A DNA stretch of 40,374 nucleotides from NCBI GenBank assembly GCA_905211955.1, contig CAJMCT010000001.1, positions 1 to 40,374 on the forward strand, written 5' to 3'. Numbering within the stretch: position 1 is the stretch's first letter; every line of letters begins with the position of its first letter. The notes under the pieces were generated by a model. The model ran no database searches and had not been told where the DNA came from. It saw only the letters and a program-made list of their open reading frames with translations. Source of the DNA: an uncultured Eubacteriales bacterium. Its GTDB lineage: Bacteria > Bacillota > Clostridia > Christensenellales > Borkfalkiaceae. Position numbers and translations under genes: made by a program. This document shows positions 11,127 to 28,935 of this stretch, in pieces.

Positions 11127-11394
11127 TAAAACCTTATTTTTTAATTAAAAATTGAATTTTTACCGCTTTACGGTGCTAATTCTTAGCCCCTAGGATTACG
11201 GATATTAGCCTGTGCTGTACCAACTTTCGAGCGAGCGATTTATCGCCCGTTTGAGTGCTGTATTATATCGCTTGACTATGTGCAATATCTGTATTCTACG
11301 ACGACGTCGCAGCTTGTTTTCGTATTTATACTACGCAAGTAAATAACTTGTCTTGAGTAGTTATTTTTCTCCCCTTATGAATTTTTCAAATCCC

Positions 11395-13075
11395 TCAAAT
11401 GTATACTCTGACAATGAGGTCTTCCCACTGATTGGGTCTTAACATTCCTTCTCTCTCTTTACGATATGTTTTCGCCTCGTTATAGTCTATCTTAAATGAC
11501 CAAACCATTTTTTTCTTTTCGTTCGGTTTCTCAATCAAATCGAAATCCATATACCACTCATAACAAGTTTCGCTTCGCGGAATAACGGTATCAACAAATT
11601 GCGAGATTATATCTCTATCCACATAATGCTCCGTAAAATCCATTTTTTGCAAAAGGAAATTCTGTATTTTCCCCTCTACGCTATCGCTGTCCGTTCTCGT
11701 TTCTACGCCTGCTTCAAATGCGAGTCTCTGTTGTACAACTTTTTCTCTTTCTTTTTCTATTTCAGATTTATATTCCAAAAATTCTTCTTTGGAAATTTCA
11801 TCTTCCAATCGCATTCGAGTCAAACGTTTCATTTTCTCGTCCAATTTAGCAATGTCTTGATTTAACCTATCTTTTAGAGCATCAGTCTGTCTGCGTCCCT
11901 CGTGGACCCCGACTTGATAAAGAGAAGAAACCTCATATAAAATATCTTTTCTGTTTCCCCATAGTCCTGAAAAAATATGTCTTGCCATCAACTCCAATTT
12001 CCAATCACATATTTCTCGCAAATCGCAAGCTCTTCCCGGATCGATTCCGGCTTCATCCCTTACGCTTTTTGAACCATTATTTAATTGGTTATAGCATTTG
12101 TATCCGTAGATTATATCTCCGTTTTTGTTTTTTCTCCACTTATTTCGGCGCATACGATATCCACAACGACATTTCAGTTTTTTTACCCAAACGTCGCCAC
12201 TCGCATGAATCCCCGCAGTATGTATTACATCACCGTCAAGCGAAAAATAATGAACTTTACGTTTTCTTTGTTCTCTTATTTGCTTACATCGTTCCCATTG
12301 CTCTTCACTGATAATCGGCTCAAAATCACCTTTCACATACATATAAGAATCTTCATCGCGATTCCTTATTATCTTTTGGTCAAGAAAATTGTTTCTTCGG
12401 GATTTCAGATATGCGGGGTAACCTTTATAGGTAGAATTATGCAAGATACGAGAAATTTTTGAATTCTCCCATCGCACTAAACCTGAACTATCCTTACGAT
12501 GCCGCCGAATCATTTCATCACGAATTTGCGACATACCCATTCCAGCGCAATACAAATCATATATCATTTTTACGGTTTCGGCTTGTTCCGCATTTATAAC
12601 ATATGTTCCTGTATTCTTGTCTCGATCGTAGCCGAGAATATTGCCGTTTCCGTATAGAACGCCCTTGTCGCGACTAATTTTCTGCCCCGCACGAACGCGC
12701 TCGGACGTTTTTCTGCTCTCTTCCTGTGCAAGCGTAGCCATAATCGTGAGTCGAAGTTCGCCGTCACCGTCCATCGTCCAAATGTTATCTTCGACGAAGT
12801 AAACTTCCACACCGTAATTCTTCAAATCTCTCGTGACCACAAGAGTATCTACTGTATTTCGAGCGAAACGGCACACCTCTCTTGTTACAATAAGGTCAAA
12901 CTTCTTTTGCTTTGCATCTTGAATCATTTGCAGAAACGCAGGTCTTTTCTTTGCTTGCGTTTCCGTGATACCTTCATCCACATACTTTCTCAACACCATC
13001 CAATTTTGATGCCTTGTTGCAATATCGTCATACCACTGAATTTGATTTTCCAAAGCCGACAACTGCGCTTCATGT
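11395..13075 (-). pseudogene. Large serine recombinase, 3' portion of a gene split by the transposon insertion (outer-element recombinase)
   Basis: Has resolvase, recombinase and Zn-ribbon regions but no N-terminal catalytic YxRxS segment and no ATG. The frame is open upstream only to the TAA of the neighbouring gene, and the ORF-track M is a TTG. The missing 32 codons are at 28838-28935. Confidence 0.8.
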
Positions 13076-13077
13076 TC

Positions 13078-13101
13078 GGATGAGTAAACGATAGGGAGAA
13101 T
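13078..13101. repeat. Left terminal inverted repeat of the transposon
   Basis: GGATGAGTAAACGATAGGGAGAAT matches the reverse complement of the right end, AGATGAGTAAACATAGGGGAAAC. 20 nt match with two 1-nt indels. Confidence 0.7.
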
Positions 13102-13110
13102 ATGCAGCCG

Positions 13111-14799
13111 TTAAAAGATTTCGGCTACACGACTTCCTTTCACTTTATACCCGTGCGTGCTTTCCGCACCGATAAATTTATAAATAATTCTGATTTCCTG
13201 TTTGTGTGCGCTTCCGTCGGCATACTTCTCGCCTATATAAATCCTGTCGATGAAATTATTCAGTATTTCGGGTGTAAGTCCCTCGATTTCCGTATAACTA
13301 TTGACGACCTTCAGAAACTCACGAATATTGCTCTCTTCGTCGTTTACAAGATCTAAAGCCTTTTTCAACTCAAGGATTTCGCTCTTTAAAGCCGTTTGTT
13401 CCGCCTCGTATTTTTTCGCCAACAAATCAAAGCGTTCGTCCGAAATTTTACCGGTTACGTTGTCTTCATACAGGTTTGCAATGATATCGTCAAGCGTTTT
13501 TATACGATTTTCCGCTTTTACAATTTTCGTTTGCGCCGAGAGCCGCACGCTCCGCATTTCTTTTACCGAACATTTACGATACTTTTCGATAAACTCCGAT
13601 TCGTGCGTTTTCACTTCGTTCATCACCCGTTTAATATCTTCCAGAACCAATTCGTTCAACACCCTCTTCAGAATCGAATGCGCCGTACACTGAATTTTCG
13701 TCCGTCTGTTGTACTTTGAGCAAACGTAAAAATCATAGTTCCTGTTTTTTGCAACACGTCTTAAAGTGATAGGAAATCCGCAATCGGCACAATATAACAA
13801 TCCGGCGAAAATATTGATATCGTCAAAGTGATTTTTCACAACCCTTTTTACCTGCGTCAACTTCTGCGCCAGATCAAACGTTTCCTTATCGACAATCGCT
13901 TCGTGGTGATTTTCGATAACCTTCCATTCGGACGGATCGCGATAGACAAACCGTTTGTTTTTATACGATTTTCTCGTCGTTTTGAAATTTACGAGATGTC
14001 CGATATAATTCGGATTACGCAAGATTTTATAAACCGTGCTTCTGTGCCATAAATACGGTTCGGTCGTGTCGTTCCGATACATATTCCTGCCCTGTTTCAG
14101 ATAAAACGCTTTCGGGGTGTCGTAGCCATTTTCGGTCAGTATTTTCGCTATTGCAAGTGCGTTATAGCCGTTTACGCATAGTCTGAATATCTCCCGGATT
14201 GTCGGCGCGCACCTTTCGTCTATCAACCACTTGTTTTTGTCGTTCGGATCTTTCATATATCCGAGCGGCGGCGTGTTCGTCAGCGGTTTTCCCGATTCGC
14301 CTTTATTCCTTATCACCGCGCGTATTTTTTTGCTCGTATCTCTCGCAAGCCATTCGTTGAAAACGTTTTTGAACGGTATCAATTCGTTATCCGAGCCGTT
14401 TTCGCTATCCACGTTATCGTTTATCGCTATAAAATGAATATCTTTTTCGGCAAACGTAAATTCCGTAAGATAGCCGACTTTCAGATAATCTCTTCCGAGC
14501 CTCGACATATCTTTTACGATTATCGTTTTCACTTTTCCTTCGTCTACGTCGGACATCATTCTTTGAAAATCCGGGCGATTGAAATTCGTTCCGCTGTAAC
14601 CGTCGTCGATATAATATTCAATATTCCGGTATCCGTGTTGTTTCGCATACCGCCCGAGAATATCTCTCTGATTTTTGATACTGTTGCTTTCGCCCTCGGT
14701 CCCGTTATCGTCTACGCTGAGCCTGCAATAAAGCGCGGTTATTACCTCACCTCCGTTTTTTGTTCTTTTATTTTTATTTGCCGTTTGTAATTCTAACAT
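13111..14799 (-). CDS. Large serine recombinase (TnpX/TndX-like transposase)
   Basis: Catalytic motif ALYCRLSVDD...SIKNQ, DDGYSGTNFNRPDFQRM, SRLGRD, a recombinase domain and a Zn-ribbon (CADCGFP...YVCSKY). The stop lies 33 nt from the element end. Confidence 0.9.
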   Translation of the reverse strand: MLELQTANKNKRTKNGGEVITALYCRLSVDDNGTEGESNSIKNQRDILGRYAKQHGYRNIEYYIDDGYSGTNFNRPDFQRMMSDVDEGKVKTIIVKDMSRLGRDYLKVGYLTEFTFAEKDIHFIAINDNVDSENGSDNELIPFKNVFNEWLARDTSKKIRAVIRNKGESGKPLTNTPPLGYMKDPNDKNKWLIDERCAPTIREIFRLCVNGYNALAIAKILTENGYDTPKAFYLKQGRNMYRNDTTEPYLWHRSTVYKILRNPNYIGHLVNFKTTRKSYKNKRFVYRDPSEWKVIENHHEAIVDKETFDLAQKLTQVKRVVKNHFDDINIFAGLLYCADCGFPITLRRVAKNRNYDFYVCSKYNRRTKIQCTAHSILKRVLNELVLEDIKRVMNEVKTHESEFIEKYRKCSVKEMRSVRLSAQTKIVKAENRIKTLDDIIANLYEDNVTGKISDERFDLLAKKYEAEQTALKSEILELKKALDLVNDEESNIREFLKVVNSYTEIEGLTPEILNNFIDRIYIGEKYADGSAHKQEIRIIYKFIGAESTHGYKVKGSRVAEIF

Positions 14800-15026
14800 A
14801 TCTGTTTACCTCCGTCAGATTCCAAACAGCAAGTTCGTAACTTACCTTCTCCAAGCCGTTCTTCCGTCAGGCTTGTAAATTTTTTTATTACCAAACGCTC
14901 TAATATCTCGTATGCGGATTCTCGTGCGCCTTGCATCGATTCCGTGCTTACGATATACAGCGTTTCGTTTTTCCTTGCCCTTACCTTGTTTTTATCCGTT
15001 ACCTTATTTGTCTCTCTGTTTTGCAA
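14793..15026 (-). CDS. Hypothetical small protein upstream of, and overlapping, the recombinase gene
   Basis: The ORF overlaps the recombinase start by 7 nt. The annotated start is a TTG only 2-3 nt from AAGGAG, and an alternative ATG is at 14936. No recognisable domain. Confidence 0.35.
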   Translation of the reverse strand: MQNRETNKVTDKNKVRARKNETLYIVSTESMQGARESAYEILERLVIKKFTSLTEERLGEGKLRTCCLESDGGKQIC

Positions 15027-15047
15027 TTCTCCTTAACTTTATTGTGC

Positions 15048-15091
15048 GGATACTATGTTCTCTCTCCGGATGGATACTATGTTCTCTCTCC
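15048..15091. repeat. Two perfect 20-nt direct repeats (GGATACTATGTTCTCTCTCC) separated by 4 nt
   Basis: Read directly at 15048-15067 and 15072-15091. They lie in the intergenic region upstream of the small-ORF/recombinase unit. Confidence 0.85.
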
Positions 15092-15131
15092 ATAAACACA
15101 AAAATCCTCCTGTTCGATATTTTAGTTTTTG

Positions 15132-15428
15132 TTACGTTTTATTGTTGTTTTTCTCTTCCTCGAATTTGCGCAACTCAAAATCAAAGAAATCGTCGTAGCC
15201 GTCCGTTATCTTCGCAAGGTCGGTATTTATCTCTCCCGACTGCTCCAACAGCGACTTATATCCTTCTTCAATGAGTTTAACTTTCGTATACCCATGTTTC
15301 TTCAAAAATGCGTCTATTTCTTCCGCCGTTTCTCTCGGTATACTCGTTCCCCATACCACGTTTTTGGCTTTTCTCTCGTTCTTATGCTTTTCTTCGTATC
15401 TTTTATCTCTTTCGCTTCTCGGTTTCAT
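15132..15428 (-). CDS. Small basic protein, putative RHH-like DNA binder (paralog 2), downstream of mob
   Basis: 98 aa. ATG preceded by GGAGGG at 7 nt. Shares the KRYEEKHKNERK...SIPRETAEEIDAFLKKHGYTKVKLI core with the other two paralogs. Confidence 0.6.
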   Translation of the reverse strand: MKPRSERDKRYEEKHKNERKAKNVVWGTSIPRETAEEIDAFLKKHGYTKVKLIEEGYKSLLEQSGEINTDLAKITDGYDDFFDFELRKFEEEKNNNKT

Positions 15429-15543
15429 TCCTGAACCCTCCGTAAATATATCATCGTATCTATACGACGATTATATTTTACTGTTTTCTGCGCTCAGAGT
15501 CAAGCTCTTTTATGTGAACGGAGAGTAAAAGCCGCCTTAAATT

Positions 15544-16578
15544 TTACTTATGATTATTGTTTCTGCCTTGTTTTTCTTGCTTTTTGCGTTCTTCTTCGAT
15601 TTCCGCTTCTATCTGTTGTAACCTCGGAACTTGCCGAACGACGTCGAGCGTAAAGAGCGAAAGAACGGAATCGAAAAAGCTACCGATTGTTTTTGGCTTT
15701 CCGTGGACGATACGCTCGTATTCTTTCGGATTAGTTCTTGCAAGTGTTTTTCCCGCGTGGATATAACGATTATCGTTATCCCTTTGTCTTTGTAATGCTT
15801 CCGATTTCCGCGCATATTCGAGCGTTTCGTCCATAGCCTTTGTAAGCCGTTTTGAAAGGTCGTTGTTGTCTGCCGTTAAAGCGATTACTTGTTCCTGCAA
15901 CTTTCCGCGTTTCCGTGGAATATTCCCGCTTTTTGCCTCGGTTAAAGCGTCCGCATAAACCTGATTTTCTTCCCGTATGGCTTCCGCTTGCTCGATTATC
16001 TTTTTTGCCTTAAATTCTGCGGTGGAAAGGTGTTTTTTCTGACTACCTTCTTTTCCGCGCTGTAAACCCCAACGTTTTCCGACGGATTCATAAAAATCCG
16101 TCTGCAACTGCTGTAACTGCGGTTTATCGAAAAGTTGTTTACTGCAAAGTCTGCCGTCTTTTGTTACGGGCATCAGGTTTAAGTGCATATGCGGCGTTGT
16201 TTCGTCGTTATGAACAACCGCCGCGATAATGTTTTCTTCGCCGTAACGCTCCGCAAAAAACTTGTAGCAGTCCGAGAAAAAGTTATATTGTTCTATCTTG
16301 GCTAAACCGTCGAAAAAAGTTTTATCCGACCCTAACACAAACGAGTTCATTACAACTGCGTCTTTGCGCGGAGATAAGCCTAACTCTTTTATTCTGCCGT
16401 TTATGAACTCCGTGTAAGTTTTGCCGAAATATGGCGTGAAGCGATAATTGTTTCTCGTCCGCTCGCTGTCTATTTGTGGATTGTCCGACTTGTATTTTTC
16501 GTCCCGTTCGTTTTCCTTTTCGATAGGCGCGACGTCTTGTTTATGGTATTTCTCCATATGACACACTAAATATGAAAT
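15544..16578 (-). CDS. MobV-family relaxase (Mob/Pre plasmid recombination enzyme, TnpZ-like)
   Basis: Mob_Pre motifs include AAVVHNDETTPHMHLNLMPV (HxDE...HxH). The canonical N-terminus MSYLVCHMEKY requires an ATT start at 16578, 9 nt after AGGAGG. A conservative ATG is at 16557. The 36-codon extension in the ORF track lacks an RBS. Confidence 0.85.
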   Translation of the reverse strand: MSYLVCHMEKYHKQDVAPIEKENERDEKYKSDNPQIDSERTRNNYRFTPYFGKTYTEFINGRIKELGLSPRKDAVVMNSFVLGSDKTFFDGLAKIEQYNFFSDCYKFFAERYGEENIIAAVVHNDETTPHMHLNLMPVTKDGRLCSKQLFDKPQLQQLQTDFYESVGKRWGLQRGKEGSQKKHLSTAEFKAKKIIEQAEAIREENQVYADALTEAKSGNIPRKRGKLQEQVIALTADNNDLSKRLTKAMDETLEYARKSEALQRQRDNDNRYIHAGKTLARTNPKEYERIVHGKPKTIGSFFDSVLSLFTLDVVRQVPRLQQIEAEIEEERKKQEKQGRNNNHK

Positions 16579-16685
16579 GATGATTTTCCTCCTGAAATTT
16601 GTTTTTATTCTCATTGAGCAAAGTGTGTAGAATTTCCTCTGCCGACTGTTTTTATCAGTGGGTTCACAGCCTCGCAGAGCCCACA

Positions 16686-16717
16686 ACTTCGCCTGCGAAG
16701 TATAGTGGGCTACACTT
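16686..16717. other. Candidate oriT / RSA site for the MobV relaxase
   Basis: Hairpin ACTTCG-CCTG-CGAAGT (16686-16701) overlaps AAGTATAGTGGGCTACACTT (16698-16717). That segment resembles, from memory, the pMV158 oriT core AAGTATAGTGTGTTATACTT. It lies just upstream of mob. Confidence 0.45.
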
Positions 16718-16903
16718 TGCCTGAATTGTTCTCATTTTGCTTCCCGTTTGCTTCCAAAGTTTTTCTCTACGATATACATTGAAAAACGCTCTTAAAAATA
16801 CATTTTCAACTTGTATCCAACTTCATTTTTCTGCCTCCTTCATTTTGTTTTACTTTCAGTTTTTGTTCTTACGAGTCCACGAAAGACAAATTATCTCTCT
16901 ACT

Positions 16904-17015
16904 TATATTGGAAAGTTTCAATCTCTTTGCGGGGGTGTTTCGCAAAAGTTTTTTACCCCCTCACTATAATTGGAAAGTTACGAGCCGTTTGTCGGGGTAT
17001 TTCACGAAAATTTTT
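16904..17015. repeat. Two imperfect ~51-nt direct repeats, period 61 bp
   Basis: TATATTGGAAAGTT..TTTGCGGGGGTGTTTCGCAAAAGTTTTTT (16904-16954) versus TATAATTGGAAAGTT..TTTGTCGGGGTATTTCACGAAAATTTTT (16965-17015). Non-coding, between the operon terminator and mob. Confidence 0.6.
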
Positions 17016-17065
17016 ATATTTTTTCTTTAGGAATATTGAAAATCTTATACCTCCTCAAAATAGGA

Positions 17066-17097
17066 ACAAAAAAGCCGATGACTGTTTGCCATCGACC
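17066..17097 (-). terminator. Rho-independent terminator of the seven-gene operon
   Basis: On the minus strand: GTCGATG-GCAAACAGT-CATCGGC followed by TTTTTTGTT. It lies 36 nt after the stop of the last operon gene. Confidence 0.6.
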
Positions 17098-17132
17098 ATA
17101 AATAATTTTATATGTTTTTATAATAAGTAATT

Positions 17133-17645
17133 TTAGTTAATGCCGCATTCCGATTCACTAATTAGAAGCGGTAAAAGCCATTTTAATATCCAACGCTTTG
17201 TCGTGTCGTAATTTGAATCGTAAAACACCGCGCCGACAATCGCTTCGATATAAGGATCGTGTCCTTTATTTACTACTTTTTCGTGATCTGGAACATTCGA
17301 ATCCGATTGGAAGTGTTTTGCGTTGTATGCATATCCGATTAAACCGCATTTCAGCATAATATTATGCATAACTTCATTATTTTCAAGTTTACTTTTTATC
17401 TGCGTAATCTCGCCTTTTGTAGTTATTCCTTTCCGATAGAGATAATCGGCAATAACGGATTTCAATACAGTATCGCCGATTGTTGCAAGCCCGTCGTTAG
17501 TGTATTCGCTATGGTTCTTTCCCTCTCCGAAAACTTCTATTTTTTCCGATCTCATTGCCTTTGAAAGCCACGCGATATCGTTAAAATGGTAATGTATTTT
17601 AATTTCAAGTTCGCGCATTTTTTGATATACAACGACTCTATCCAT
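17133..17645 (-). CDS. RNase III-domain-like protein (Mini-III-sized, no dsRBD); operon gene 7
   Basis: 170 aa. NDGLATIGDTVLK (17472-17498) aligns to the RNase III signature NERLEFLGDAVL. DPYIEAIVGAVFYD aligns to the second catalytic block DxxEAxxGA. The ATG overlaps the upstream stop by 1 nt. Confidence 0.55.
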   Translation of the reverse strand: MDRVVVYQKMRELEIKIHYHFNDIAWLSKAMRSEKIEVFGEGKNHSEYTNDGLATIGDTVLKSVIADYLYRKGITTKGEITQIKSKLENNEVMHNIMLKCGLIGYAYNAKHFQSDSNVPDHEKVVNKGHDPYIEAIVGAVFYDSNYDTTKRWILKWLLPLLISESECGIN

Positions 17646-18190
17646 CAGATTTTATCTCCATTGAATACAATTCTATTAGACAAATTCACTTCCACGGATT
17701 TACCGTTTTTATCTATATCAAACCAAGAAATATCATTTTTATATCTGTCCGTCAAGCATAAAATGCGTTGATTTTCAGAGCCGAGTAACCTGCGTTTTGT
17801 TTCTTTTTCTTCCAAAACGTATTCGCCATCAAGCACAAGGTCTACGCCGGCAAGAAAGTCTGAAACTTCTTCGTATTTTCTGCCCGTAAACGATATAATG
17901 CCAAGCCCGAGTTTTTTTATTTCGTTGGTTAAAAACGGAAGATTATGTTGACAAGTAGGTTCTCCGCCGGAATACGTTACCCCTTCAATTCCAAATTCGT
18001 CAATCGACTTTTTTATTACCGAAATAATCTCGTCGATCGACATAATATGGCGCGCAATAAACGGCTGGTAATCAGGATTACAACACTCGTTACAATGAAT
18101 ATCGCAACCCTGAAACCATATACACAATCTTTTGTGCGGACCTTCTGTTTCCGTACAACGGTTTATACTCGCAACGTTAAACTTAATCAT
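17645..18190 (-). CDS. Small radical-SAM protein of the NrdG/glycyl-radical-activase-like type; operon gene 6
   Basis: FQGCDIHCNECCNPD contains CxxxCxxC (18083-18106). GGEP motif (YSGGEPT). ~181 aa from ATG 18190, which overlaps the upstream gene by 8 nt. The ORF-track start at 18208 is a TTG. Confidence 0.65.
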   Translation of the reverse strand: MIKFNVASINRCTETEGPHKRLCIWFQGCDIHCNECCNPDYQPFIARHIMSIDEIISVIKKSIDEFGIEGVTYSGGEPTCQHNLPFLTNEIKKLGLGIISFTGRKYEEVSDFLAGVDLVLDGEYVLEEKETKRRLLGSENQRILCLTDRYKNDISWFDIDKNGKSVEVNLSNRIVFNGDKI

Positions 18191-20021: not shown

Positions 20022-20026
20022 TATTT

Positions 20027-21112
20027 TCACCTCTTATTTGTGTTTGTTTTTACCGTTTGGTACTTCATAGACAATATTTTATCGGGATTGCTCCAAATTT
20101 CCTGCGTTTTGGTAACATGTAAACCGTAAACTTCTTCCAAATCGTTCAGAAAAGGCTGTATATCCTTTTGGCACGCCTGTCCTTCGTAACCTCGGAAGTC
20201 GTAAATAAATTTACCGTCCAGAAACACGCGGAATTCCGCTTTTTCGCCGCTTGCTTTCAGTCCGACCAAAATCACTTCGTTTGTATCGCGTTTGATTTTT
20301 ATATTCTTTTTATCCACGATAAATCCGCGGGCGGTTATCGCCGACATTATGATTTTCAGCGACTTCTGACGGATTTTTTCGCCTACGATTTCTTCCGTCG
20401 CCGCCGATCTTATTTCGGAAAGCGGTTTATTCTCTGTTATGACTTTATCGATGATAGTCTTTTCAACTCTTGCGGCTTCGAGTTCGCGGCGAATCTTTTC
20501 ACGCTCTTTTTCGATACGCGATTCATAAGTTTCGTTTTTGAGTTCTCTGCCCGCTCTGATTAGATCATCGCCCGAAAGCGTATCGTTTTTCAGATATGCA
20601 AGGTAAGCAAACTGCCTTTCCGTTTCGTCCTGAATGGAATCGAGAAGTTTTTGAATCTCGGCGGGGATTGTAACGACTCCGTTTGCTTTATCTCTCAATC
20701 TTTTTTGATTTTCTTCGATACTGTTTTCAAGTAAACTTTGATAAAGCGCGCGCATTTCGACTAATCGTTTAGCCGCCAACTCGTTTACTTGATTTTGTAA
20801 TTCTTGCGCCGCTTTATCCACGTTATCGGCAGAATTCAGTCTTAATCTGTCGCTATCACCGCTTACAACGCCTTTTTTCGCTACTTCTTTTGCCTGCGCT
20901 TTTAAGTTTTCGATTTTTCTAACGAATGAATCTCGTTTTTCTACAATCAATTGTTGTAATGCCGCCGTCTGACTATTCTGTAAGCTTTGCGAGCCGTTTT
21001 CTATATCCGAAAGTATCTGGTCGAGTTCGGCGATCTGCCTTTCGGCAACTTCGCAAATGCTTTCGCATCTTATCGCTATCGCCTCGTAGTCTATTTGTAC
21101 CTGATGGCTCAT
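20027..21112 (-). CDS. Coiled-coil protein with a ~100-aa C-terminal globular domain, unknown function; operon gene 4
   Basis: The first ~260 aa have heptad-rich, low-complexity Q/E/K/L/A composition. The start ATG 21112 forms an ATGA overlap with the stop of gene 3. No recognisable catalytic motif. Confidence 0.6.
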   Translation of the reverse strand: MSHQVQIDYEAIAIRCESICEVAERQIAELDQILSDIENGSQSLQNSQTAALQQLIVEKRDSFVRKIENLKAQAKEVAKKGVVSGDSDRLRLNSADNVDKAAQELQNQVNELAAKRLVEMRALYQSLLENSIEENQKRLRDKANGVVTIPAEIQKLLDSIQDETERQFAYLAYLKNDTLSGDDLIRAGRELKNETYESRIEKEREKIRRELEAARVEKTIIDKVITENKPLSEIRSAATEEIVGEKIRQKSLKIIMSAITARGFIVDKKNIKIKRDTNEVILVGLKASGEKAEFRVFLDGKFIYDFRGYEGQACQKDIQPFLNDLEEVYGLHVTKTQEIWSNPDKILSMKYQTVKTNTNKR

Positions 21113-23337
21113 TTTCGTTCCCCCTTTATGGCAAATACTATATCGCGCCAATTTTCAATCGTTTCTTTATCGAAACGTGTTTGCGACTTTTCCGGATGTT
21201 GCAATCCGTTTCTGCACATACGAAGTTTATGTAATGCGGATTCTTGCTTGCCGTCGAGAATGCCTTTATCTTTTGCCATAACGAGTAAATCGTGTGCAGA
21301 CGTCATAGGCTCGGCGTTAAGCATATCTCTTAAATCGTATTGCAGTTTTACGAATAAATCGCAAATTACGTCTTTATATTTTCCGCGTGCAATCTGCTCG
21401 TCAACGTATTTTTTCGTAATTTTTTCGGGATGAGAAGACGCGCTGCGCTCAATAGACAACAAATCGTGAATCGGTTCGTAAATCTCTATAAACTTTCTGA
21501 TTGCAGCATAGGATTTAGGCGCATATTTCTCGTATTTTGCCACCGATTTCAACTTCGAATTAAGCGTAGCGTAAGCATCGAAAAATTCGTCTTCGTTATA
21601 ATCGTCTTTAAGCGTATATTCCGAAAGGCTCTCTATCCCGAGCATATCGTTCAGTTTCCACAAATTCCGTTTAATATTACAAAAAGTGTTACCGAGATCG
21701 GAATCCGAGTAAATTTCTTCGTTATTTACAACTTTCTCGGCAAAGTCCGCCACCACATTCACAACACTTAAAACGGCGTCAACGGTAAAACCTGCGCTTA
21801 AAAGTGCCTCGTAAACAATATCGTCGTCTTCCGTTTTTTTCATTTCTTTCGCAAAGGCGGAAACGTAGTCGAAATCGTTCATCCCGAGTGCTTTTCTGAG
21901 CGGATTCAACACCGACGATTTATAAATCGCATTATCGATTTTTATCTCGCTTGCGCTTTCTTCAAACAATTCTTTTGCCGTCGATACAAAATAGTTTTGC
22001 CACTCGGCATTCTTGATAAAAGCGTTATTCAGTTTTAACACAACTTCTATCTTTTCATCAACAGTTTTTGTGTTTTCAAACAGCGCCCTAATAGTTCTAC
22101 CAAAATACGAAGAATCTTTCAACGCGGCAACCGTAAACAAAACCACTTTTGCAACATCGTCGGCAAAATCTTTTTGTACGTAATACTCAAAAATTTCTTC
22201 TACCGTTTCTTTATGGCGCATTTCGTCTAAAACACTTTCGGTAAGCAACTGCATTTCAAACGTATCGCCAAGCTGGTTGCAAGCCATTTTTACGTTTACG
22301 GCGGAATAGTAGTGAAGCGCGGAAGTATCGAGCAAAGCAAACTCGGCATTCCCGCCTATTTCGCCAAGTATCTTTATCGAAAAATCTTTATCCGTTCTTA
22401 AAACGTTATCCGTTCTGTCGGTTGCAAGTCTGCCGCCGTCGATAAAAATTTTACAAGGTCGTTTCGCCTGCTTGGATACGTCGTTCGGGATATATGCGCC
22501 CACGATATCGGTAAGCTCGGAAAGTAACACCGTCGGCACGTCTACCGCATTTTTAAGAGCGTCCACAAACTTATACTTTTCTTTGGCAAGCAAGCATTTT
22601 GTCATAAATGCGGATGAATACCACTTGTCAAAATATGCGGTTTCGTCCGACGTTTCAAACGAAAATACAGCGCCGCTTTTGTTTATTACAACTTGCGTTC
22701 CGTCCTCTTTTCTGACTTGTTTTTCTTCTCCGACCTTGGGTATTTCGACTTCGACAACGCGTTCTTCGGCTTTTAGCCCTACTTTTGTCGGATTCGCTTC
22801 TATATAATCTTTAAGTCCGCTTATGTCTATCGTTTTTCCTAAAAACCTTTCGATATCTTCGTAAAGAACGGACGAATCGAGAGAGGTATACGGAAGCGAA
22901 TAACTCACGTCGAATTTCCGCGTTACGGGGCTATAAAAAATATCTTTCGTCTTTACTTTTTCTTCGCCTGTGGGAATCGCGCCTTCACGGAACATTTTTC
23001 TGCCTTTCGCAGTAAGCGAAACGTCTTTTACTCTGATTTCCGAAAAGTATTTCGGATTCATAAAATGCGACGGATCGTAGTCATAAGACAGTATTTCGGT
23101 ACCGATAAGATTTGAAATTTCTTTCCCGAAAATATAGTGCAAATCATTCGGAATCCCGAATTTAAGCAGCACGTCGCATATTTTGTCTTCCGAACCCGCA
23201 GTTTTTTCGATTACGTCGAGTAGAATATATGCAACGCCCGACGCCTTCCTTACCTCGTTATATCGCACGTTTACTTTATAGACAAGTAGCGGAAACGGAA
23301 TAGCCGTAGTGAATTTTAACAAACTTTTCTCTTCCAT
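21109..23337 (-). CDS. 742-aa protein of unknown function with a C-terminal HEPN-like Rx4H motif; operon gene 3
   Basis: No recognisable N-terminal domains. The C-terminal helical region contains LHKLRMCRNGLQH, with R-N-G-L-Q-H at 21196-21213. The ATG lies 1 nt after the helicase stop. Confidence 0.6.
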   Translation of the reverse strand: MEEKSLLKFTTAIPFPLLVYKVNVRYNEVRKASGVAYILLDVIEKTAGSEDKICDVLLKFGIPNDLHYIFGKEISNLIGTEILSYDYDPSHFMNPKYFSEIRVKDVSLTAKGRKMFREGAIPTGEEKVKTKDIFYSPVTRKFDVSYSLPYTSLDSSVLYEDIERFLGKTIDISGLKDYIEANPTKVGLKAEERVVEVEIPKVGEEKQVRKEDGTQVVINKSGAVFSFETSDETAYFDKWYSSAFMTKCLLAKEKYKFVDALKNAVDVPTVLLSELTDIVGAYIPNDVSKQAKRPCKIFIDGGRLATDRTDNVLRTDKDFSIKILGEIGGNAEFALLDTSALHYYSAVNVKMACNQLGDTFEMQLLTESVLDEMRHKETVEEIFEYYVQKDFADDVAKVVLFTVAALKDSSYFGRTIRALFENTKTVDEKIEVVLKLNNAFIKNAEWQNYFVSTAKELFEESASEIKIDNAIYKSSVLNPLRKALGMNDFDYVSAFAKEMKKTEDDDIVYEALLSAGFTVDAVLSVVNVVADFAEKVVNNEEIYSDSDLGNTFCNIKRNLWKLNDMLGIESLSEYTLKDDYNEDEFFDAYATLNSKLKSVAKYEKYAPKSYAAIRKFIEIYEPIHDLLSIERSASSHPEKITKKYVDEQIARGKYKDVICDLFVKLQYDLRDMLNAEPMTSAHDLLVMAKDKGILDGKQESALHKLRMCRNGLQHPEKSQTRFDKETIENWRDIVFAIKGERK

Positions 23338-23338
23338 T

Positions 23339-26300
23339 TTACTCTCCTAAAATATCTTTCGCCGTAAGTATTCTTCCGCGGAAGTTTATCGTGTCGATAA
23401 TTTCTCTGTATACGGGGAAGTTGATTTTATCGCGACTGTGATCGCCTTCGAGATCGGGAAGGTCGATTATGCCCGCTTCCGATAAAAACTTTTTCGAGCC
23501 GACAATAATCAAAAGTTTTCTCGCTCTTGACAACGCAACGTTGATACGCTCGAATTTTTTGATAAATTCCGCATCATACCTCGCGCCGCTCGGATTTCTT
23601 ACCATCGAAACGATAATGATATCCCTTTCATCGCCTTGGAAATCGTCAACGGTACTGATAACAAGTTTTTCGTCCGGTTTACCCGAAAAGCCCGTAAATT
23701 GATAGCCTTTACGTTTCTTTTTTATTAGTCCCGCCTGATCGCCATATGTACAAATAATACCCGCGCTCGGTCTTTCGTCGATTTTCCTTGACGGATCAAC
23801 GATAATTTTATGCTCGGAAACAAGCACTTTCGCCGCTTTGTCGAGTTCCTTTAATAGCGTTATCGCAACCTGCGCTTCCTGCTCGTTGATTTTGGACGTA
23901 CTGCCTTCGAATGCGCTCGATTCTTTTTGGTCGCAATCCACAAAATATATGTGCCGTTTGGGATCGATAACGGTATTTCCGTTGATTTTTACGGTAAGAT
24001 TATGCTCTTTTTCGTCGTCTTGTTGTTTTTTTCCTACAACAAGACCTTTACCATTACCGCCATAGAAATGATTGAACACTTCCATAATGTGGCTGTGGCA
24101 ACGGTATTGCTTATTAAGCATTACTCTGAAATCGCTCGGAACTTTCTCATACAGCGTTTTGAAGAAACATTCTTCATATAACTTTGTATATCCGTCGTTG
24201 ATTTCCTTTGTGATTTTTTCTTCGTCGAGTCCGTCGAAATCATCTCCCCGCATATGCCGCAAATCGTACATAGGCGGAAGTTGACGATGGTCGCCGACGA
24301 GAATAACCGTCTTGCCGTATAAAATAGGTATCAGCAAATCGAGAAAAGACGACTTTGACACTTCGTCCACGATTACAACGTCTATGCCTTGCGTTCTGAT
24401 ATCTACCGATTCGATTCCGTATTTACCGAGTTCGGCAAGTTGCGACGGCGTGAATCTGTCGCGGCTTGTGCAGGTAATACCGAAAACGTTTGCCGAATTG
24501 TAAAGTTCTCTCGTATATGCGGCTCTATCTTCCTCTAAGATATCTTCCTGCGACAAGTATTTTACGATATCCTTATACATCGGAATTTTTATTTTGTTTT
24601 CGGAAGACGAAGCATTATACTCGGTTTCGAGTTTATTCCACTCGTCGCTGATAATGTCGAAAGCCGTTTCAAGATTGTCCGAATCGTATTCCCTGACAAT
24701 TCCGAAATCGCGGAAAAATCTCATAATCTTTTGTTTTAGTACGGAATTCAACTCACCGTATTCTTCAATATCGGGATTTTCTCCGAGTTTTTCGTATAAA
24801 CGTTTTTTCTCGCTTATTTGGATTTTTAGTTCGTTTATTTTATCGGATATAGCGTTTTCGTTGTCTATATCGCCATTGATTTTGAATTCGATTATATTTC
24901 TCTGTGTGTTTACAATATCGGCAAGTTTTGCCTTGAATTGCGCAAGTTCGGAAGGCAATTGCTTCAATATTTCTTTTGCACCCGTAATACCGGGGACGAG
25001 AGAGTAAATCACGCTTCCGGCAATATCGAACTCCGAATTATTTTCGTATTCTTTAATCTTTTTGCCTACGGCAATCAACTCGCTTTGATTCTTTTTATAC
25101 TCTTCGTAATTAAAATCTCCTTCATTCGGTGCTTCGTCCGTATCGGGATCTCGCAAACCGCTCAAAACGTTTCGCAAAGCACGCTGGCGATTTTTTAACT
25201 CCACAATCGCGTCTTCGCTCAAAAAACGCTCTAATTCTTTGTTTATTGCCTGAATATCGGCATTAACAAGCTCGGCAACCTTATCGAGCGTTACCTCTTC
25301 AAAACAAGCAAAGCACTTTAACAGGCGTTCTACTTGTTCGGCGTATTTATCCAATACGTTGCTATCTGCGCCTTCGCCCGAAAAACGATACGATTCGACG
25401 TATTTAAGCGTTCTCGTATACTTTTCGGTATCTTCTTTTGCGGCAAGAAGTTTTTCTCTTAAAACTTCGTTTTCTCCGGTTAAACGGTTTATTTCTGAAA
25501 GCAAATTGTTCCGCTTTCTTTCCGTATCTGCATTCTCCCGTTGCAATTTCAAAAGGCGATCGTAATCGAGGCGAAGAGATTTCATCGTCGAATCGAATTC
25601 TTCTCTCGTCTCTTTGTAATTGTCGTATCTTGCTACTTGCTTTTCAAGGTTTCCGCAAATATTGAGATAGAAATTGTCTACAAGCCTTTCGGGACTGTAA
25701 TTCGTTTCTTTACCGTTTTGCGACGGAATAAGACGAAGCGGACGTATTTCGGGGATTTTAGGCAATCTGTCAAATACGTTATCGATTGCCTTATGTGTTT
25801 CGGAAGATATTAAAACTTTCTTACCGCGTTTCGTCAGTTGCGCCGTAATCTCGGCTATAACCTGTGTTTTTCCCGTTCCCGGAGGACCTTGCAACAAAAA
25901 TATACTTTCGCTTTGAAGCGCGCGTTTTACGGCAAGTTTTTGTCTGTCGTTCAAACTTTCAAGACACCACTCGGGATCTTTGATCTCTTCTACGGAAGAC
26001 TGCGCAAGCGTTTCGGGCGAAAAAAGATACGTCGGTAAGAACGGATTCTTAACGTACCCGCCCAAAATAGAAGTCAACGCCTTTTCTTGTCTGTCTATTT
26101 TTGCTTTTTCCGCACGATTATCATAAGTAAGATACCTCGGCGCAATTTCCTCGATTTGCTTTTCGATTTCTTTTACTTTGTCTGTGATATCTTGCGGACG
26201 GAAATAAATCTGATATCGGCGTATCGTTTCGTTCTCGATTTTATCAGCCTTATCTTCGTTTAATTTTTGAAGTAAAACGTTTTTTATTTCGGTTTTCTCG

Positions 26301-27964
26301 GAATCGATACCCTCTGCATATTGAAATTCTAATTGATTTTTCTTTTCCTTTTTAAGTTTATCCAGTTCTTCCTGACAACGTATTGCCAAACTCTTTTGCT
26401 TTTTCTCGACAAGTGCCATATTGCGGCGAATATAATGGTCACGCAAAGATACCTGTGCCTTCGCCATTTCTATACGCTTATCGTATTCATCGTTCAATGC
26501 CGATTCATCACCGTATAAAGCATCGATCTGTTTGTCTTTTTCGGCGGTAGACAATTTTGAGCGTCTAATTTGGTCTATTTTGGAACGAATTGAGCCGAGT
26601 CGTTTCTTCCTTTCGGTTTCAATCGGCGTGATAAGTTGAGTAATCTCGCTTTGGTATGCCTTGTATACATCTTTATCGGAATTATTTATAACGTCGGAAT
26701 CAAGTCTATCGTAAAGCTCTGTTTTGTATTCAATAAGTTGTGCGTCGTATTTTTCTTGCGTTTTAGCAGAAACGCCTGCCATATAACGATTCACCTCGGC
26801 AAGAATTATACCGTTATACTTGCTGTCGATTTCTCCGTATCTTGCAGTCAATTCTTTTTCGTAATTCTTGTCGAGAGCAGATAAATCAGGTTCTATATCT
26901 ATGTACGCGAATAAATATCGTTCACCGAGAAGATACGATTTGATACTTCTGATATTACCTTTATCGTCCGATTTCGGCGGATACGGCGACAACCCCATAG
27001 CGTCCCGAGTATATCGGTTCAGGTTAACCTCAAACTTCGGTTTTCCTTTCCCGTTTCTACCAACCGTTTCGGATAATATTTCCTTTCTGTTCTTTTCTAT
27101 CGCAACGCAAATCAGCGGAAAACCGTCGGCGCCCGCCACTTCTTTCGATAATATTATCTGCTCGCTTTTGCCGAAATCTTTAATTCCGTCCAAAAGAAGT
27201 CCTGAAAAAGCCTCTTCGTTTCTGCGATAGGATTCTTTCGTTATCATATATGCGTCGCATACGTGAACGTCGGTAATTTCTTCGCAACGCTCGGATTGTT
27301 TTCCTAAATAGTATCTGCGAAAATCGATATACCGCAACCATTGATTAAAAATGCCAATCGCCTCGGCGGGATTCGGAACGGGAAATAGTTTAGTGGCTAT
27401 TTCATTTACAAAGTCGTTTGTAAGAACAGAATCGTGCAATTCGCCGTTACCGTAATCAGGAACCGAAAACGTATTTCCGGTATTTCTGCTATATATTTCC
27501 TTCTTTGCAAACGCACAAAGCGACGAACAAAAAACTCGCTTTTCTCCGTATTTTACCGTTCGTCTGTCTATCAAATCTATCCCTTTTACGGATATTTCCG
27601 TAACGTTCCCAAATGTAACGTCGCCGATTATTATAAAGTCGTATGTTTCGGGCAGAATATGGCGAGAGTTTTCATCCGCTTCGGGGCGAATTACGATATT
27701 ACGCAAAATCTTATTCCCACGCTTATTTTCGTCCATTGTTCTGTCAAACGAAGGCAAAGATACGTTGTAATATTTTTCAGGCGTAGACGGAAACGTGTAT
27801 CCGATAAATTCTTGAAAAGTGTCGGGCGCATAACCGCCGAGTTTTCTTTTCAGCGTTTCGTATTGCTCGTTTAACGATTGTGTGAAAAAGTCGTTTCTCC
27901 CCCAAGCCTTATCACCTAAACCTTTATCCAAATTATCCAAGAAATTCAGATATAAGTAAGCCAT
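23339..27964 (-). CDS. 1541-aa Upf1/DNA2-like superfamily-1 helicase with large uncharacterised N-terminal and coiled-coil regions; operon gene 2
   Basis: Motifs read: I LLQGPPGTGKTQ (25865-25888, about residue 693), II VVIVDEVSK (D about residue 1200), III VGDHRQLPP, IV LNKQYRCH, V TVDDFQGDERDIIIV, VI NVALSRARK. Confidence 0.8.
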   Translation of the reverse strand: MAYLYLNFLDNLDKGLGDKAWGRNDFFTQSLNEQYETLKRKLGGYAPDTFQEFIGYTFPSTPEKYYNVSLPSFDRTMDENKRGNKILRNIVIRPEADENSRHILPETYDFIIIGDVTFGNVTEISVKGIDLIDRRTVKYGEKRVFCSSLCAFAKKEIYSRNTGNTFSVPDYGNGELHDSVLTNDFVNEIATKLFPVPNPAEAIGIFNQWLRYIDFRRYYLGKQSERCEEITDVHVCDAYMITKESYRRNEEAFSGLLLDGIKDFGKSEQIILSKEVAGADGFPLICVAIEKNRKEILSETVGRNGKGKPKFEVNLNRYTRDAMGLSPYPPKSDDKGNIRSIKSYLLGERYLFAYIDIEPDLSALDKNYEKELTARYGEIDSKYNGIILAEVNRYMAGVSAKTQEKYDAQLIEYKTELYDRLDSDVINNSDKDVYKAYQSEITQLITPIETERKKRLGSIRSKIDQIRRSKLSTAEKDKQIDALYGDESALNDEYDKRIEMAKAQVSLRDHYIRRNMALVEKKQKSLAIRCQEELDKLKKEKKNQLEFQYAEGIDSEKTEIKNVLLQKLNEDKADKIENETIRRYQIYFRPQDITDKVKEIEKQIEEIAPRYLTYDNRAEKAKIDRQEKALTSILGGYVKNPFLPTYLFSPETLAQSSVEEIKDPEWCLESLNDRQKLAVKRALQSESIFLLQGPPGTGKTQVIAEITAQLTKRGKKVLISSETHKAIDNVFDRLPKIPEIRPLRLIPSQNGKETNYSPERLVDNFYLNICGNLEKQVARYDNYKETREEFDSTMKSLRLDYDRLLKLQRENADTERKRNNLLSEINRLTGENEVLREKLLAAKEDTEKYTRTLKYVESYRFSGEGADSNVLDKYAEQVERLLKCFACFEEVTLDKVAELVNADIQAINKELERFLSEDAIVELKNRQRALRNVLSGLRDPDTDEAPNEGDFNYEEYKKNQSELIAVGKKIKEYENNSEFDIAGSVIYSLVPGITGAKEILKQLPSELAQFKAKLADIVNTQRNIIEFKINGDIDNENAISDKINELKIQISEKKRLYEKLGENPDIEEYGELNSVLKQKIMRFFRDFGIVREYDSDNLETAFDIISDEWNKLETEYNASSSENKIKIPMYKDIVKYLSQEDILEEDRAAYTRELYNSANVFGITCTSRDRFTPSQLAELGKYGIESVDIRTQGIDVVIVDEVSKSSFLDLLIPILYGKTVILVGDHRQLPPMYDLRHMRGDDFDGLDEEKITKEINDGYTKLYEECFFKTLYEKVPSDFRVMLNKQYRCHSHIMEVFNHFYGGNGKGLVVGKKQQDDEKEHNLTVKINGNTVIDPKRHIYFVDCDQKESSAFEGSTSKINEQEAQVAITLLKELDKAAKVLVSEHKIIVDPSRKIDERPSAGIICTYGDQAGLIKKKRKGYQFTGFSGKPDEKLVISTVDDFQGDERDIIIVSMVRNPSGARYDAEFIKKFERINVALSRARKLLIIVGSKKFLSEAGIIDLPDLEGDHSRDKINFPVYREIIDTINFRGRILTAKDILGE

Positions 27965-27965
27965 T

Positions 27966-28490
27966 TTACTCCCCCTTCGTAAATTTACGATACTTATCGA
28001 ATATATCTATATAATCCAAAAATTCCTTTATTTCTGCAGGCGACATACCGTTTGTAATACCGCCGACTTTATCGAGTATAACGCTTTTCGTAAACGGATC
28101 GAGTCCGTTTAATGCTTGCCCCGCAGTCAATTGCTGTTTTAACGCATCGTTTTCGCTTTGTAATCTTTCAAGTTCGTTTGTCAGATTTTCCACAGAAGAA
28201 AGCGACTGCTTTTTATCCTGAATACTGTCTTTCAGAATACTCGAAATTCTGTTGACGTATTGTGCGAGAATATCGGGATCGGACTCGTCAAGAACCAACT
28301 CCAATTCATCTTCGCTTTCCTTCCCGAAAAGATAGAAGATTTTATATTGCTTATCTTTAGGAATATCCGAAAAGTTTTCTAGATTTCGATAATTGTAGAT
28401 CGTCGCTTTGGATATTTCGAGATATTTAATTAAATCCGTAACCTTAATAGAAAATTTCGTAACGAGTCTTTCAAATAATTTCGTTGTCAT
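27966..28490 (-). CDS. HTH DNA-binding protein with a central coiled coil (putative operon regulator); operon gene 1
   Basis: N-terminal HTH-like VTDLIKYLEISKATIYNYRN. Coiled-coil segment LTNELERLQSENDALKQQL. The stop lies 1 nt before the helicase ATG. Confidence 0.6.
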   Translation of the reverse strand: MTTKLFERLVTKFSIKVTDLIKYLEISKATIYNYRNLENFSDIPKDKQYKIFYLFGKESEDELELVLDESDPDILAQYVNRISSILKDSIQDKKQSLSSVENLTNELERLQSENDALKQQLTAGQALNGLDPFTKSVILDKVGGITNGMSPAEIKEFLDYIDIFDKYRKFTKGE

Positions 28491-28519
28491 TTTTGGTACC
28501 TTCTTATCCGTTTGACATC

Positions 28520-28548
28520 ATTATACTATATTAAAAACATAATGTCAA
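28520..28548 (-). promoter_or_regulatory. Consensus sigma-A/sigma-70 promoter of the seven-gene operon
   Basis: On the minus strand: TTGACA (28548-28543), exactly 17 nt, then TATAAT (28525-28520). It lies ~30 nt upstream of the gene 1 ATG. It is bracketed by the 7-bp inverted repeat TTGACAT/ATGTCAA (28542-28548 and 28512-28518). Confidence 0.65.
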
Positions 28549-28814
28549 TACATTTTGTCTAAAATAGTCTAATTTATATCCAATAAAACAAAAAAATTTT
28601 GTAAACAACTAAAAAGTAGTGTTTTTAGACCAATTTAACCATTTCATTCTGCCTTTTCTATGCTTAAGCCGCAATATACGGACCTCATATAAACGCTTAC
28701 GATATTTTCAAAGCAAAAAGAGACTGCCTGTCTTTTTAATTGCAATCTCTTTTACTTAAAGCATTATATTACGTTGTTTTTATAGCAATATATTTACGAA
28801 CTTGCTGTTTGATT

Positions 28815-28837
28815 GTTTCCCCTATGTTTACTCATCT
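28815..28837. repeat. Right terminal inverted repeat of the transposon
   Basis: Plus-strand GTTTCCCCTATGTTTACTCATCT is the reverse complement of AGATGAGTAAACATAGGGGAAAC, which matches the left end at 13078-13101. Confidence 0.7.
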
Positions 28838-28935
28838 TCACTTGACACTCGCCCGTAAAAAACGACACGCCGCTGTCGGTTTCTGTTAGTATTCACACCC
28901 GTAGGCATAACCATACTGTTTTCAACCATTTGCAT
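28838..28935 (-). pseudogene. 5' fragment (32 codons) of the split large serine recombinase gene
   Basis: The minus strand reads MQMVENSMVMPTGVNTNRNRQRRVVFYGRVSS, then enters the transposon end and stops (..EDE-TAA). YGRVS is the serine-recombinase catalytic motif. GGGAGG lies upstream. Confidence 0.75.

Follow-up and report, generated by a model that had tools for sequence, protein, structure and literature searches.

A mobilisable transposon inserted in the large serine recombinase gene of a decayed conjugative element, and the preference of its family for DNA encoding the recombinase catalytic motif

The stretch of DNA considered here, hereafter the window, comprises 40,374 nucleotides of contig CAJMCT010000001.1 (GenBank assembly GCA_905211955.1) from an uncultured Eubacteriales bacterium of the family Borkfalkiaceae. 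In this window, a mobilisable transposon bearing its own large serine recombinase (LSR) splits another LSR gene, namely that of the conjugative element surrounding it (the outer element). The split is real and the transposon boundaries are exact apart from a shared GAA, because intact homologues, empty sites (i.e., sites without the insertion) and an independent metagenome all give the same junction. The position does not appear accidental, as comparison of insertion flanks shows statistically that the transposon family prefers those parts of many different LSR genes that code for R-[V/L]-S-x-[E/D]. Taken by itself, the arrangement is an unremarkable nested insertion like others already known, the target preference being apparently undescribed.

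A recombinase gene in two pieces

The features on which the split rests are the following, with the evidence in brackets:

11395 to 13077, minus strand: body of the outer LSR gene, codons 33 to 592 and stop (translation, Pfam on the repaired protein, intact homologues)
12961 to 12963, minus strand: GAA codon, i.e., G69E in the DEGITGTQ motif of the outer LSR (comparison of homologues)
13076 to 13077, minus strand: left GA crossover copy, TC on the plus strand (comparison of junctions, from which GA is preferred over AA)
13078 to 28839, minus strand: mobilisable transposon, or integrative and mobilisable element (IME), of 15,762 bp, one GA copy (28838 to 28839) being counted (absent from empty sites; same right end in 47 flanks)
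13080 to 13096: left terminal inverted repeat, ATGAGTAAACGATAGGG (repeat search)
28820 to 28835: right terminal inverted repeat, CCCTATGTTTACTCAT, matching the left repeat at 16 of 17 positions with one gap (repeat search)
28840 to 28935, minus strand: stub of the outer LSR gene, 32 codons including R-V-S, with the catalytic serine, and S32 (translation, junction analysis)

Read on the minus strand, 28935 to 28840 gives the first 32 codons of the outer LSR (MQMVENSMVMPTGVNTNRNRQRRVVFYGRVSS, ending in …VVFYGRVSS), and 13077 to 11395 gives codons 33 to 592, i.e., 560 residues and a stop codon (EHEAQLSALENQIQWYDD…VRVYI*, the start being also given as EHEAQLSALENQIQWY), open throughout and devoid of the catalytic segment. 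Deletion of 13078 to 28839 in silico fuses the two pieces in frame. Since 13075 to 13077 and 28837 to 28839 both read TTC (GAA on the coding strand), a shift of the deletion by at most 2 nt leftward or 1 nt rightward leaves the repaired product identical. Counted from its second methionine (MVENS…), the repaired outer LSR has 590 amino acids (aa) and matches the Pfam families Resolvase (residues 24 to 172, 3e-28) and Recombinase (residues 196 to 303, 3.9e-18), together with a zinc-ribbon match under the cut-off (18.6 vs 25.3 bits). A catalytic Y-x-R-x-S motif and a Recombinase domain, in a protein of about 590 aa, are thus combined in the outer gene only after its repair in silico.

This split had been proposed in a sequence-only reading of the window, the coordinates of which were right to within 2 nt, the body ending at 13077 and not at 13075; in the automated list of open reading frames (ORFs), the body appears as 11395 to 13062 with a TTG start. 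The orphan ORF recognised in that reading as the missing N-terminus is genuine, but only 28935 to 28840 derives from the recombinase gene, the remainder down to 28828 being supplied by the transposon: the ORF overruns the junction as …RVSSEDE*, with a TAA at 28828 to 28830 that comes from the transposon end.

Intact homologues and empty sites

Two checks had been named in the sequence-only reading, namely a search with the repaired protein for full-length homologues with an uninterrupted N-terminus, and a search for related DNA carrying the outer element without the insertion; both were run and both bore out the split. Against 5.8 billion proteins, the repaired outer LSR retrieved an intact protein of 590 aa (P0001) identical to it at 588 of 590 positions, and others (P0002 to P0008), equally intact, identical at 571 to 585 of 590. 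All of them align through the junction, where they read …VVFYGRVSSEHEAQLSALENQ… (also given as …FYGRVSSEHEAQLSALENQ…), and a differing N-terminus at this place, which would have told against the split, was found in none of P0001 to P0008. At the DNA level, the uninterrupted gene is present in the metagenome contigs L001 to L004 and L075 to L080, these empty sites running on as …GTCAAGT-GA-ACATGAAG….

Stretches 11202 to 13077 and 28832 to 30052 of the window are neighbours in L001 and L075 (blastn). The best empty site, in L079, is 99.8% identical to window 28832 to 30423 and 98.0% identical to 11307 to 13077, is contiguous over the site and reads there …CGGGCGAGTGTCAAGT-GA-ACATGAAGCGCAG…, with a single GA; the restored site is CGAGTGTCAAGT-GA-ACATGAAGCGCAG (…CAAGT-GA-ACATG…). 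Conversely, the right junction of the window recurs with an identical flank in L013, from an independent metagenome, where the transposon copy is 96.8% identical. The claim that the repaired gene lends independent support to the transposon boundaries is thus borne out by intact homologues and by real DNA such as L079.

In the repaired gene, residue 69 is Glu, whereas 110 of 112 homologues with a recognised motif (D-x-G-I-T-G region) have Gly at this position. This substitution may reflect decay after inactivation of the gene and is consistent with relaxed selection following the split.

Crossover point

Of 97 intact homologues of the split gene, 96 encode Glu at the split codon, whereas GAA-G, GAC-G and GAT-G are all seen at occupied junctions within this LSR family; the base after GA is therefore derived from the transposon. 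By this comparison, the crossover is GA, with which the Glu33 codon of the outer LSR begins; a crossover at AA or at the second GA was considered as well and is ruled out by the same contrast. GA is found on both sides of the transposon, and in a single copy in the empty target of L079. The circular joint would, by analogy, read …ACTCATCC-GA-AGATGAGT… (over other stretches, CTATCGTTTACTCATCC-GA-AGATGAGTAAACATAGGGG or CGTTTACTCATCC-GA-AGATGAGTAAACATAGG).

The sequence-only reading also held that the target partly resembles this joint. Taken literally this is true, as the predicted joint (…CGTTTACTCATCC-GA-AGATGAGTAAACA…) and the target (…GAGTGTCAAGT-GA-ACATGAAGCGCAG…) agree at 8 of the 16 positions nearest to GA (8 nt per side); it carries little weight, though, as 3.4% of random GA sites of the window match as well (empirical p of about 0.03). 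Mimicry of the joint over a longer stretch was rejected, no excess over random GA sites of the window being found at 15 to 20 nt per side. A-Y-G-A at +4 to +7, present in four of six right half-sites, is the one feature in common that recurs. What recurs at the target is DNA encoding the LSR catalytic motif, rather than likeness to the joint.

Insertion sites across the transposon family

Relatives of the transposon were collected by scans requiring an exact match to 23 nt of its right end, which yielded 52 loci in metagenomes, mostly labelled human gut, and eight in a set restricted to a single genome for each species; after deduplication, 47 distinct flanks remained. The right terminal repeat is conserved in loci L005 to L074, and the 174-aa protein encoded at this end occurs in 232 blocks of the assembly collection. 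Metagenome-assembled genomes with related loci belong to Clostridia and Christensenella, with one Sphaerochaetaceae bin, and the right-end pattern had no match among IMG/VR viral contigs. The left-end sequence is absent from the right-end loci, all of which are too short to span the element, and the left 3.7 kb of the transposon had no plasmid match by megablast.

In 29 of the 47 distinct flanks, the DNA ends, in frame up to GA, with codons for [YFI]xR[VLI]Sx, i.e., the LSR catalytic motif, which precedes only 77 of 92,255 GA sites (0.08%) in all fetched DNA. All 29 insertions in LSR genes lie directly after the Ser-x codons. The corresponding flanks fall into 16 clusters at <75% nucleotide identity and represent four types of LSR N-terminus, namely (i) VVFYGRVS[ST], (ii) (C/A)AYCRVST, (iii) LY[C/F/T]RLSx, the same kind of LSR as that of the transposon itself, and (iv) VVIYIRVST. 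Of the eight loci from the set with a single genome for each species, seven lie in LSR genes. Left junctions, reached through homologues of the inner LSR (that of the transposon), are in keeping with this picture: five of six distinct ones continue as the body of an LSR (EHEAQL…, EDERQGES…, DEESQQS…), the sequence running on as EHEAQLAALENQ… in L084 and L087, EDERQGESASIEHQ… in L081 to L083 and DEESQQSSYELQ… in L085. The left junction in L086 lies in a tyrosine recombinase gene, within the part that encodes the C-terminus (…HELRH…); this too is a mobile-element recombinase, but not one of the serine type. Several flanks outside LSR genes nonetheless encode GRVSTE, GVSTD or RRLSSE, which suggests that the enzyme reads DNA and not the gene.

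A sister DUF4368 LSR (P0184, 546 aa), 51% identical to the inner LSR, belongs to elements ending in …AAAATCCCCAAGGATAATTA(A/G)CACA (L088 to L096), and in seven of ten places this end adjoins a 5'-truncated IS200/IS605 Y1 tnpA gene at one and the same codon (…HTKWNCKYHIVFAPKYRR…), the tnpA alleles being diverged and their downstream contexts different. It can be proposed tentatively, with somewhat less than an even chance of being right, that transposons of the DUF4368 clade are "recombinase-gene homers", separate lineages of which would be specific for conserved recombinase motifs of other mobile elements; at the same tentative level, the lineage of the window would address the R-V/L-S-x-E/D codons of LSRs and that of P0184 a codon of the IS200/IS605 Y1 tnpA gene. 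If so, homers would gain a harmless landing site riding on conjugative DNA, the host element would be reversibly disarmed, and homers would act as regulators of, or parasites on, the mobility of others.

Proposed mechanism and alternative explanations

The arrangement most probably results from the integration of an IME of the TnpX/TndX (Tn4451/Tn5397) type in a conjugative element, now decayed, and more precisely in its recombinase gene, such genes being a target of the IME family. Conservative integration by the serine recombinase would have taken place at GA of the Glu33 codon of the outer LSR gene, leaving the catalytic R-V-S on a 32-codon stub that ends in the TAA of the transposon, and the other 560 codons 15.8 kb away without a start codon. 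By analogy with TnpX and TndX, the element would excise as a circle with no need for a directionality factor, its excision would restore the host LSR gene precisely, and it would be mobilised in trans via its MobV relaxase. Landing in the recombinase genes of other elements would offer a harmless site travelling with conjugative DNA, at the price for the host element of being locked in place.

That the split would be an artefact of assembly, i.e., a chimera linking unrelated pieces, is extremely improbable. Chimeric-looking proteins of this kind do exist in databases (P0012, P0017 and P0050), but P0012 itself comes from two samples processed with different assembly tools, the right junction of the window recurs in the independent metagenome L013, junctions of the transposon family are found in about 70 contigs from many samples, GA and inverted repeats are present at both junctions, and the repaired site matches real contigs. 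A programmed intervening element, the signalled excision of which would switch the mobility of the conjugative element, is very unlikely. In the skin element within sigK and the fdxN element, excised by the LSRs SpoIVCA and XisF, respectively, precise excision rebuilds the reading frame, and these elements are domesticated, immobile and developmentally regulated. Like them, the window transposon is an LSR-bearing element that interrupts a gene, the frame of which precise excision would restore; its insertion is exact and ought to be reversible at GA, many LSR genes are hit at this site, and a conserved 18-nt inverted repeat, with one arm at the right end and one in the promoter region of the LSR gene, could report whether the element is integrated or circular. 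Unlike them, it encodes a relaxase, occurs widely and at numerous sites, and sits in a gene of another mobile element; the same transposon is also found in unrelated sites, and G69E in the host gene together with the partial loss of VirB4 suggests decay over maintenance.

The excess of LSR genes could also be viewed as survivorship, where a transposase of low specificity would persist mostly in dispensable genes and a few ancestral composites would then spread by transfer and recombination. This is in line with the low integration specificity described for relatives of Tn4451 (PMC5704250), with the 18 of 47 flanks that lie outside LSR genes, with the restriction of 8 of the 16 LSR clusters to one LSR family and with the identical flank in the window and L013. 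It is nonetheless very unlikely: selection cannot fix one codon, yet all 29 LSR hits lie directly after Ser-x; spread of a single composite cannot explain four deeply different LSR types with flanks <75% identical; the motif stands before GA at only 0.08% in the background; and several sites outside LSR genes still encode strings like GRVSTE, GVSTD or RRLSSE.

Some of these observations, with others, do count against a family-targeted IME of the TnpX/TndX type. The specificity is loose, because 18 of the 47 flanks are not in LSR genes. The family VVFYGRVS[ST] accounts for half of the target clusters in LSR genes, and some of its cases could descend from one ancestral insertion via transfer or homologous recombination. 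In the logo of the left half-site, recognition of DNA and coding conservation of the targets are inseparable, and the exact 23-nt requirement restricts the sample to close relatives of the transposon. The similarity of target and joint expected for TnpX-like enzymes is marginal, and the mobility of the transposon is predicted from its sequence.

Relation to described elements

The domain DUF4368 marks a clade of multi-targeting LSRs with TndX-like transposases (bioRxiv 10.1101/2021.11.05.467528), and elements of the Tn4451 type recombine at 2-bp identities without requiring a directionality factor (PMC5704250). Assignment of the window transposon to the TnpX/TndX type is based on domains, GA flanks, repeats and relaxase, the one measured identity being that of 41.6% between its LSR and the LSR of an annotated TnpV-Mob-TnpW-DUF4368 element from enterobacterial plasmids; in both elements, Mob, a small ORF and the LSR follow one another in this order toward the end. 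With Tn4451/Tn4453 (TnpX) and Tn5397 (TndX), the transposon shares a DUF4368 LSR, GA flanks with one GA in the empty target, terminal inverted repeats that are imperfect, integration at many sites (here 47 distinct flanks) and, with Tn4451/Tn4453, a MobV-type relaxase equivalent to TnpZ, for mobilisation in trans. Unlike in Tn4451 and Tn5397, the LSR gene is here the last gene and reads toward the element end, no TnpV, TnpY or TnpW is recognised inside the window transposon, and, in place of catP, 11 kb of cargo form a Mokosh-like putative defence cluster. The strong preference for DNA of the LSR catalytic motif is a further difference, no such description having been found for TnpX or TndX.

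Nested insertions of related elements are on record. In Clostridioides difficile R20291, the TnpX-related mobilisable transposons Tn6104, Tn6105 and Tn6106, with a 2-bp repeat, lie inside the conjugative Tn6103, the transfer of which they are thought to block (PMC3158075), and "matryoshka" composites of mutually integrated elements, both IMEs and integrative and conjugative elements (ICEs), are known in Firmicutes (PMC12084326); unlike in the window, these insertions are described in ORFs of conjugation modules and not in a recombinase gene. Closer cases are the ICE Tn7740, located within the serine recombinase gene of an aadE IME in C. difficile, no core motif at the integration sites being reported by the authors (PMC12271512), and ICE_Fpr918_intser of Faecalibacterium, the name of which implies a serine recombinase gene as target (PMC12084326). 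In both, as in the window, an LSR-bearing element lies in the serine recombinase gene of another element, but in these cases it is an ICE that lies in an IME gene, i.e., the reverse nesting. For these two, no statement was found that catalytic-serine codons are a recurrent target, and in phrase searches of the literature Tn7740 was the only explicit case of an element in a serine recombinase gene. No description of a transposon family homing to catalytic-serine codons was found, in a literature covered incompletely, so that novelty is unproven.

Implications

While nested elements are usually recorded singly, a rule seems to emerge here, namely that a family recognises the DNA encoding the active site of serine recombinases, and this would explain the frequent stacking of composite elements at integrase genes in gut Firmicutes. 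For annotation, the corresponding signature would be an orphan stub of about 30 codons ending in …RVS[ST] beside ACGAGTAAAC. A route is also suggested by which one element silences the mobility of another and possibly releases it later, and LSRs with a defined, portable target motif would be of interest as tools for genome integration. For the window itself, the boundaries of the transposon are fixed to the base, and the conjugative element around it appears as a dead remnant.

Gene content of the transposon

Inside the transposon, the following features were recognised:

13111 to 14799, minus strand: LSR of the transposon, 562 aa (Pfam Resolvase, Recombinase, Zn_ribbon_recom and DUF4368)
14823 to 14840: 18-nt repeat arm just upstream of the start codon of this LSR gene (perfect complement of 28794 to 28811)
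15132 to 15428, minus strand: small protein of 98 aa, between relaxase and LSR (translation; paralogue of 29248 to 29511 and of 2577 to 2789)
15544 to 16686, minus strand: MobV/Mob_Pre relaxase (Pfam 9.7e-54; NCBIfam MobV 179 bits, cut-off 100)
17133 to 28490, minus strand: cargo of about 11 kb (Pfam, PADLOC)

The four Pfam matches of the transposon LSR, in the order listed, have E-values of 8e-26, 9.7e-24, 6.2e-13 and 8.8e-19 and all pass the gathering scores; an exact look-up returned no identical protein on record, homologues were found at 80 to 96% identity, and those at 83 to 96% were used in its place. The true start of the relaxase is probably internal, as homologues have 337 aa (L081). 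An integrase and a relaxase of its own qualify the transposon as an IME, and no match to VirB4 or VirD4, i.e., to mating-pore genes, was found in it with Pfam among ORFs of >60 aa except the 98-aa ORF.

The second 18-nt arm (28794 to 28811) lies about 25 nt inside the right end of the transposon, and the first lies just upstream of the ribosome-binding site of the LSR gene. Both arms are conserved in related transposon loci and would flank the LSR gene in the circular form, which suggests a regulation by the integrated versus the circular state.

The 98-aa gene is present in L081, L082, L084 and L085 as well. It is one of three paralogous small proteins encoded in the window (2577 to 2789, 15132 to 15428 and 29248 to 29511), of 70 to 98 aa with the core …(M/S)IPR(E/D)…(E/D)EI(N/D)AFL…TKV…, two of which (15132 to 15428 and 29248 to 29511) precede an LSR gene by a few hundred bp and had no match in Pfam, NCBIfam or PADLOC. 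Such paralogues could be regulators or directionality factors of LSRs.

The cargo encodes an RNase III-like protein, a small radical SAM protein, a ClpB-like AAA+ protein (PDC-M37B/DolB-like), proteins of 374 and 742 aa, a MkoA-like helicase of 1541 aa and a protein of 174 aa. The largest of them, of 1541 aa, matches the Mokosh helicase MkoA (PADLOC, 5.1e-87); the 742-aa and 374-aa proteins have no family match, and no MkoB or PLD-family partner was found among the other cargo proteins with PADLOC and Pfam, so that the set does not correspond to Mokosh type I. The cargo looks like an undescribed, multi-gene and Mokosh-like putative defence cluster.

The outer conjugative element

On either side of the transposon, the outer element comprises:

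11188 to 11202: estimated end of the outer element, some 195 nt beyond the stop codon of the LSR gene (blastn breakpoints at 11202 in L001 and L075, and at 11188/11189 in L076 to L078 and L080)
11343 to 11368: inverted repeat AAATAACT-N10-AGTTATTT immediately beyond the LSR stop codon and still inside the outer element
29248 to 30065, minus strand: small protein of 87 aa (29248 to 29511) and TnpV (29625 to 30065), upstream of the outer LSR in the same arrangement as in L001, L075 and L079
30197 to 32627, minus strand: AbiEi/AbiEii module, AbiEii being split (31763 to 32020 and 30197 to 31108)
32790 to 37324, minus strand: surface protein (32790 to 35876) and C-terminal 472 codons of VirB4 (35877 to 37295), homology ending at 37324/37325

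In L001 and L075, the element is intact, with a VirB4 of 883 aa, a surface protein of 1028 aa, TnpV, small ORFs and the LSR as the last gene, and the chromosomal genes rplU, rpmA, obg and mutS lie 5 to 10 kb downstream of the LSR. Window 32782 to 37325 corresponds to L001 8818 to 4275, ending within the 883-aa VirB4 gene of the latter, and window 37324 to 38588 corresponds to L080 1265 to 1 (99.8% identical over 1265 nt), L080 being a different element with a 99%-identical LSR. In this second stretch, the 88-aa ORF 37318 to 37584 is the N-terminal fragment (87 codons) of the sigma-70-like gene of L080. The outer conjugative element, on this comparison, is a deletion remnant, because VirB4 homology ends mid-gene at 37325 and DNA of the L080 type follows. 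At 37324 to 37325, a junction of a deletion type joins the last 472 codons of VirB4 with the first 87 of the sigma-70-like gene; the L080-type element also has LexA-like and WYL-like regulators (38213 to 39972).

A functional ICE would have both a complete VirB4 and an intact integrase gene, which L001 and L075 possess and the window lacks. The proposal of the sequence-only reading that the outer element is immobilised is plausible in view of the truncated VirB4 and G69E, but the insertion by itself does not suffice as its cause, as excision should restore the gene; immobilisation is thus likely more from these two lesions than from a reversible insertion.

The inverted repeat at 11343 to 11368, which that reading had offered as a candidate boundary of the outer element, proved internal, homology continuing to about 11188 to 11202. 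It is identical in the window, L001, L075 to L078 and L080, with about 150 further conserved nt beyond it, and was rejected as a boundary for being invariant and inside a tail of about 195 nt conserved in all intact copies; a consensus terminator scan made no call at this repeat. Where homology stops, two different downstream contexts begin.

Within the AbiEi/AbiEii module, AbiEii is interrupted by an insert of 541 bp (31242 to 31782) bounded by CCTTA and TA, which is missing from L013, where AbiEii is intact at 426 aa. Its sole gene encodes a lincosamide nucleotidyltransferase of 163 aa related to lnu(AN2) (252 bits, cut-off 340), and no recombinase accompanies it.

Public data also hold in-frame chimeras of the outer LSR (P0012, P0017 and P0050; loci L099 and L100). 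In P0012, residues 1 to 79 of AbiEii are joined to the outer LSR at about residue 94 (IVTREVC), at the same ACCTTA as the lnu insert of the window, and this in the two samples and different assembly tools mentioned above; P0017 joins the N-terminus of a WYL-like regulator to the outer LSR at TLAQEES, and P0050 is an outer LSR with an internal deletion. Such chimeras suggest recurrent deletions stripping the catalytic end of the LSR.

Region beyond the outer element

Outside the outer element, window 270 to 10139 resembles a defence island. Downstream of the intact LSR of L077, genes stand in the same order (helix-turn-helix protein, 245-aa protein, AbiEii), blastn giving no nucleotide similarity there. 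The stretch includes a second AbiEi/AbiEii pair (8467 to 10139) and, from visual reading of translations, what appear to be a type III restriction-modification system, with its methylase and restriction subunits (3518 to 7863), a DUF262-like protein (270 to 2087), and NUDIX-like and peroxiredoxin-like genes.

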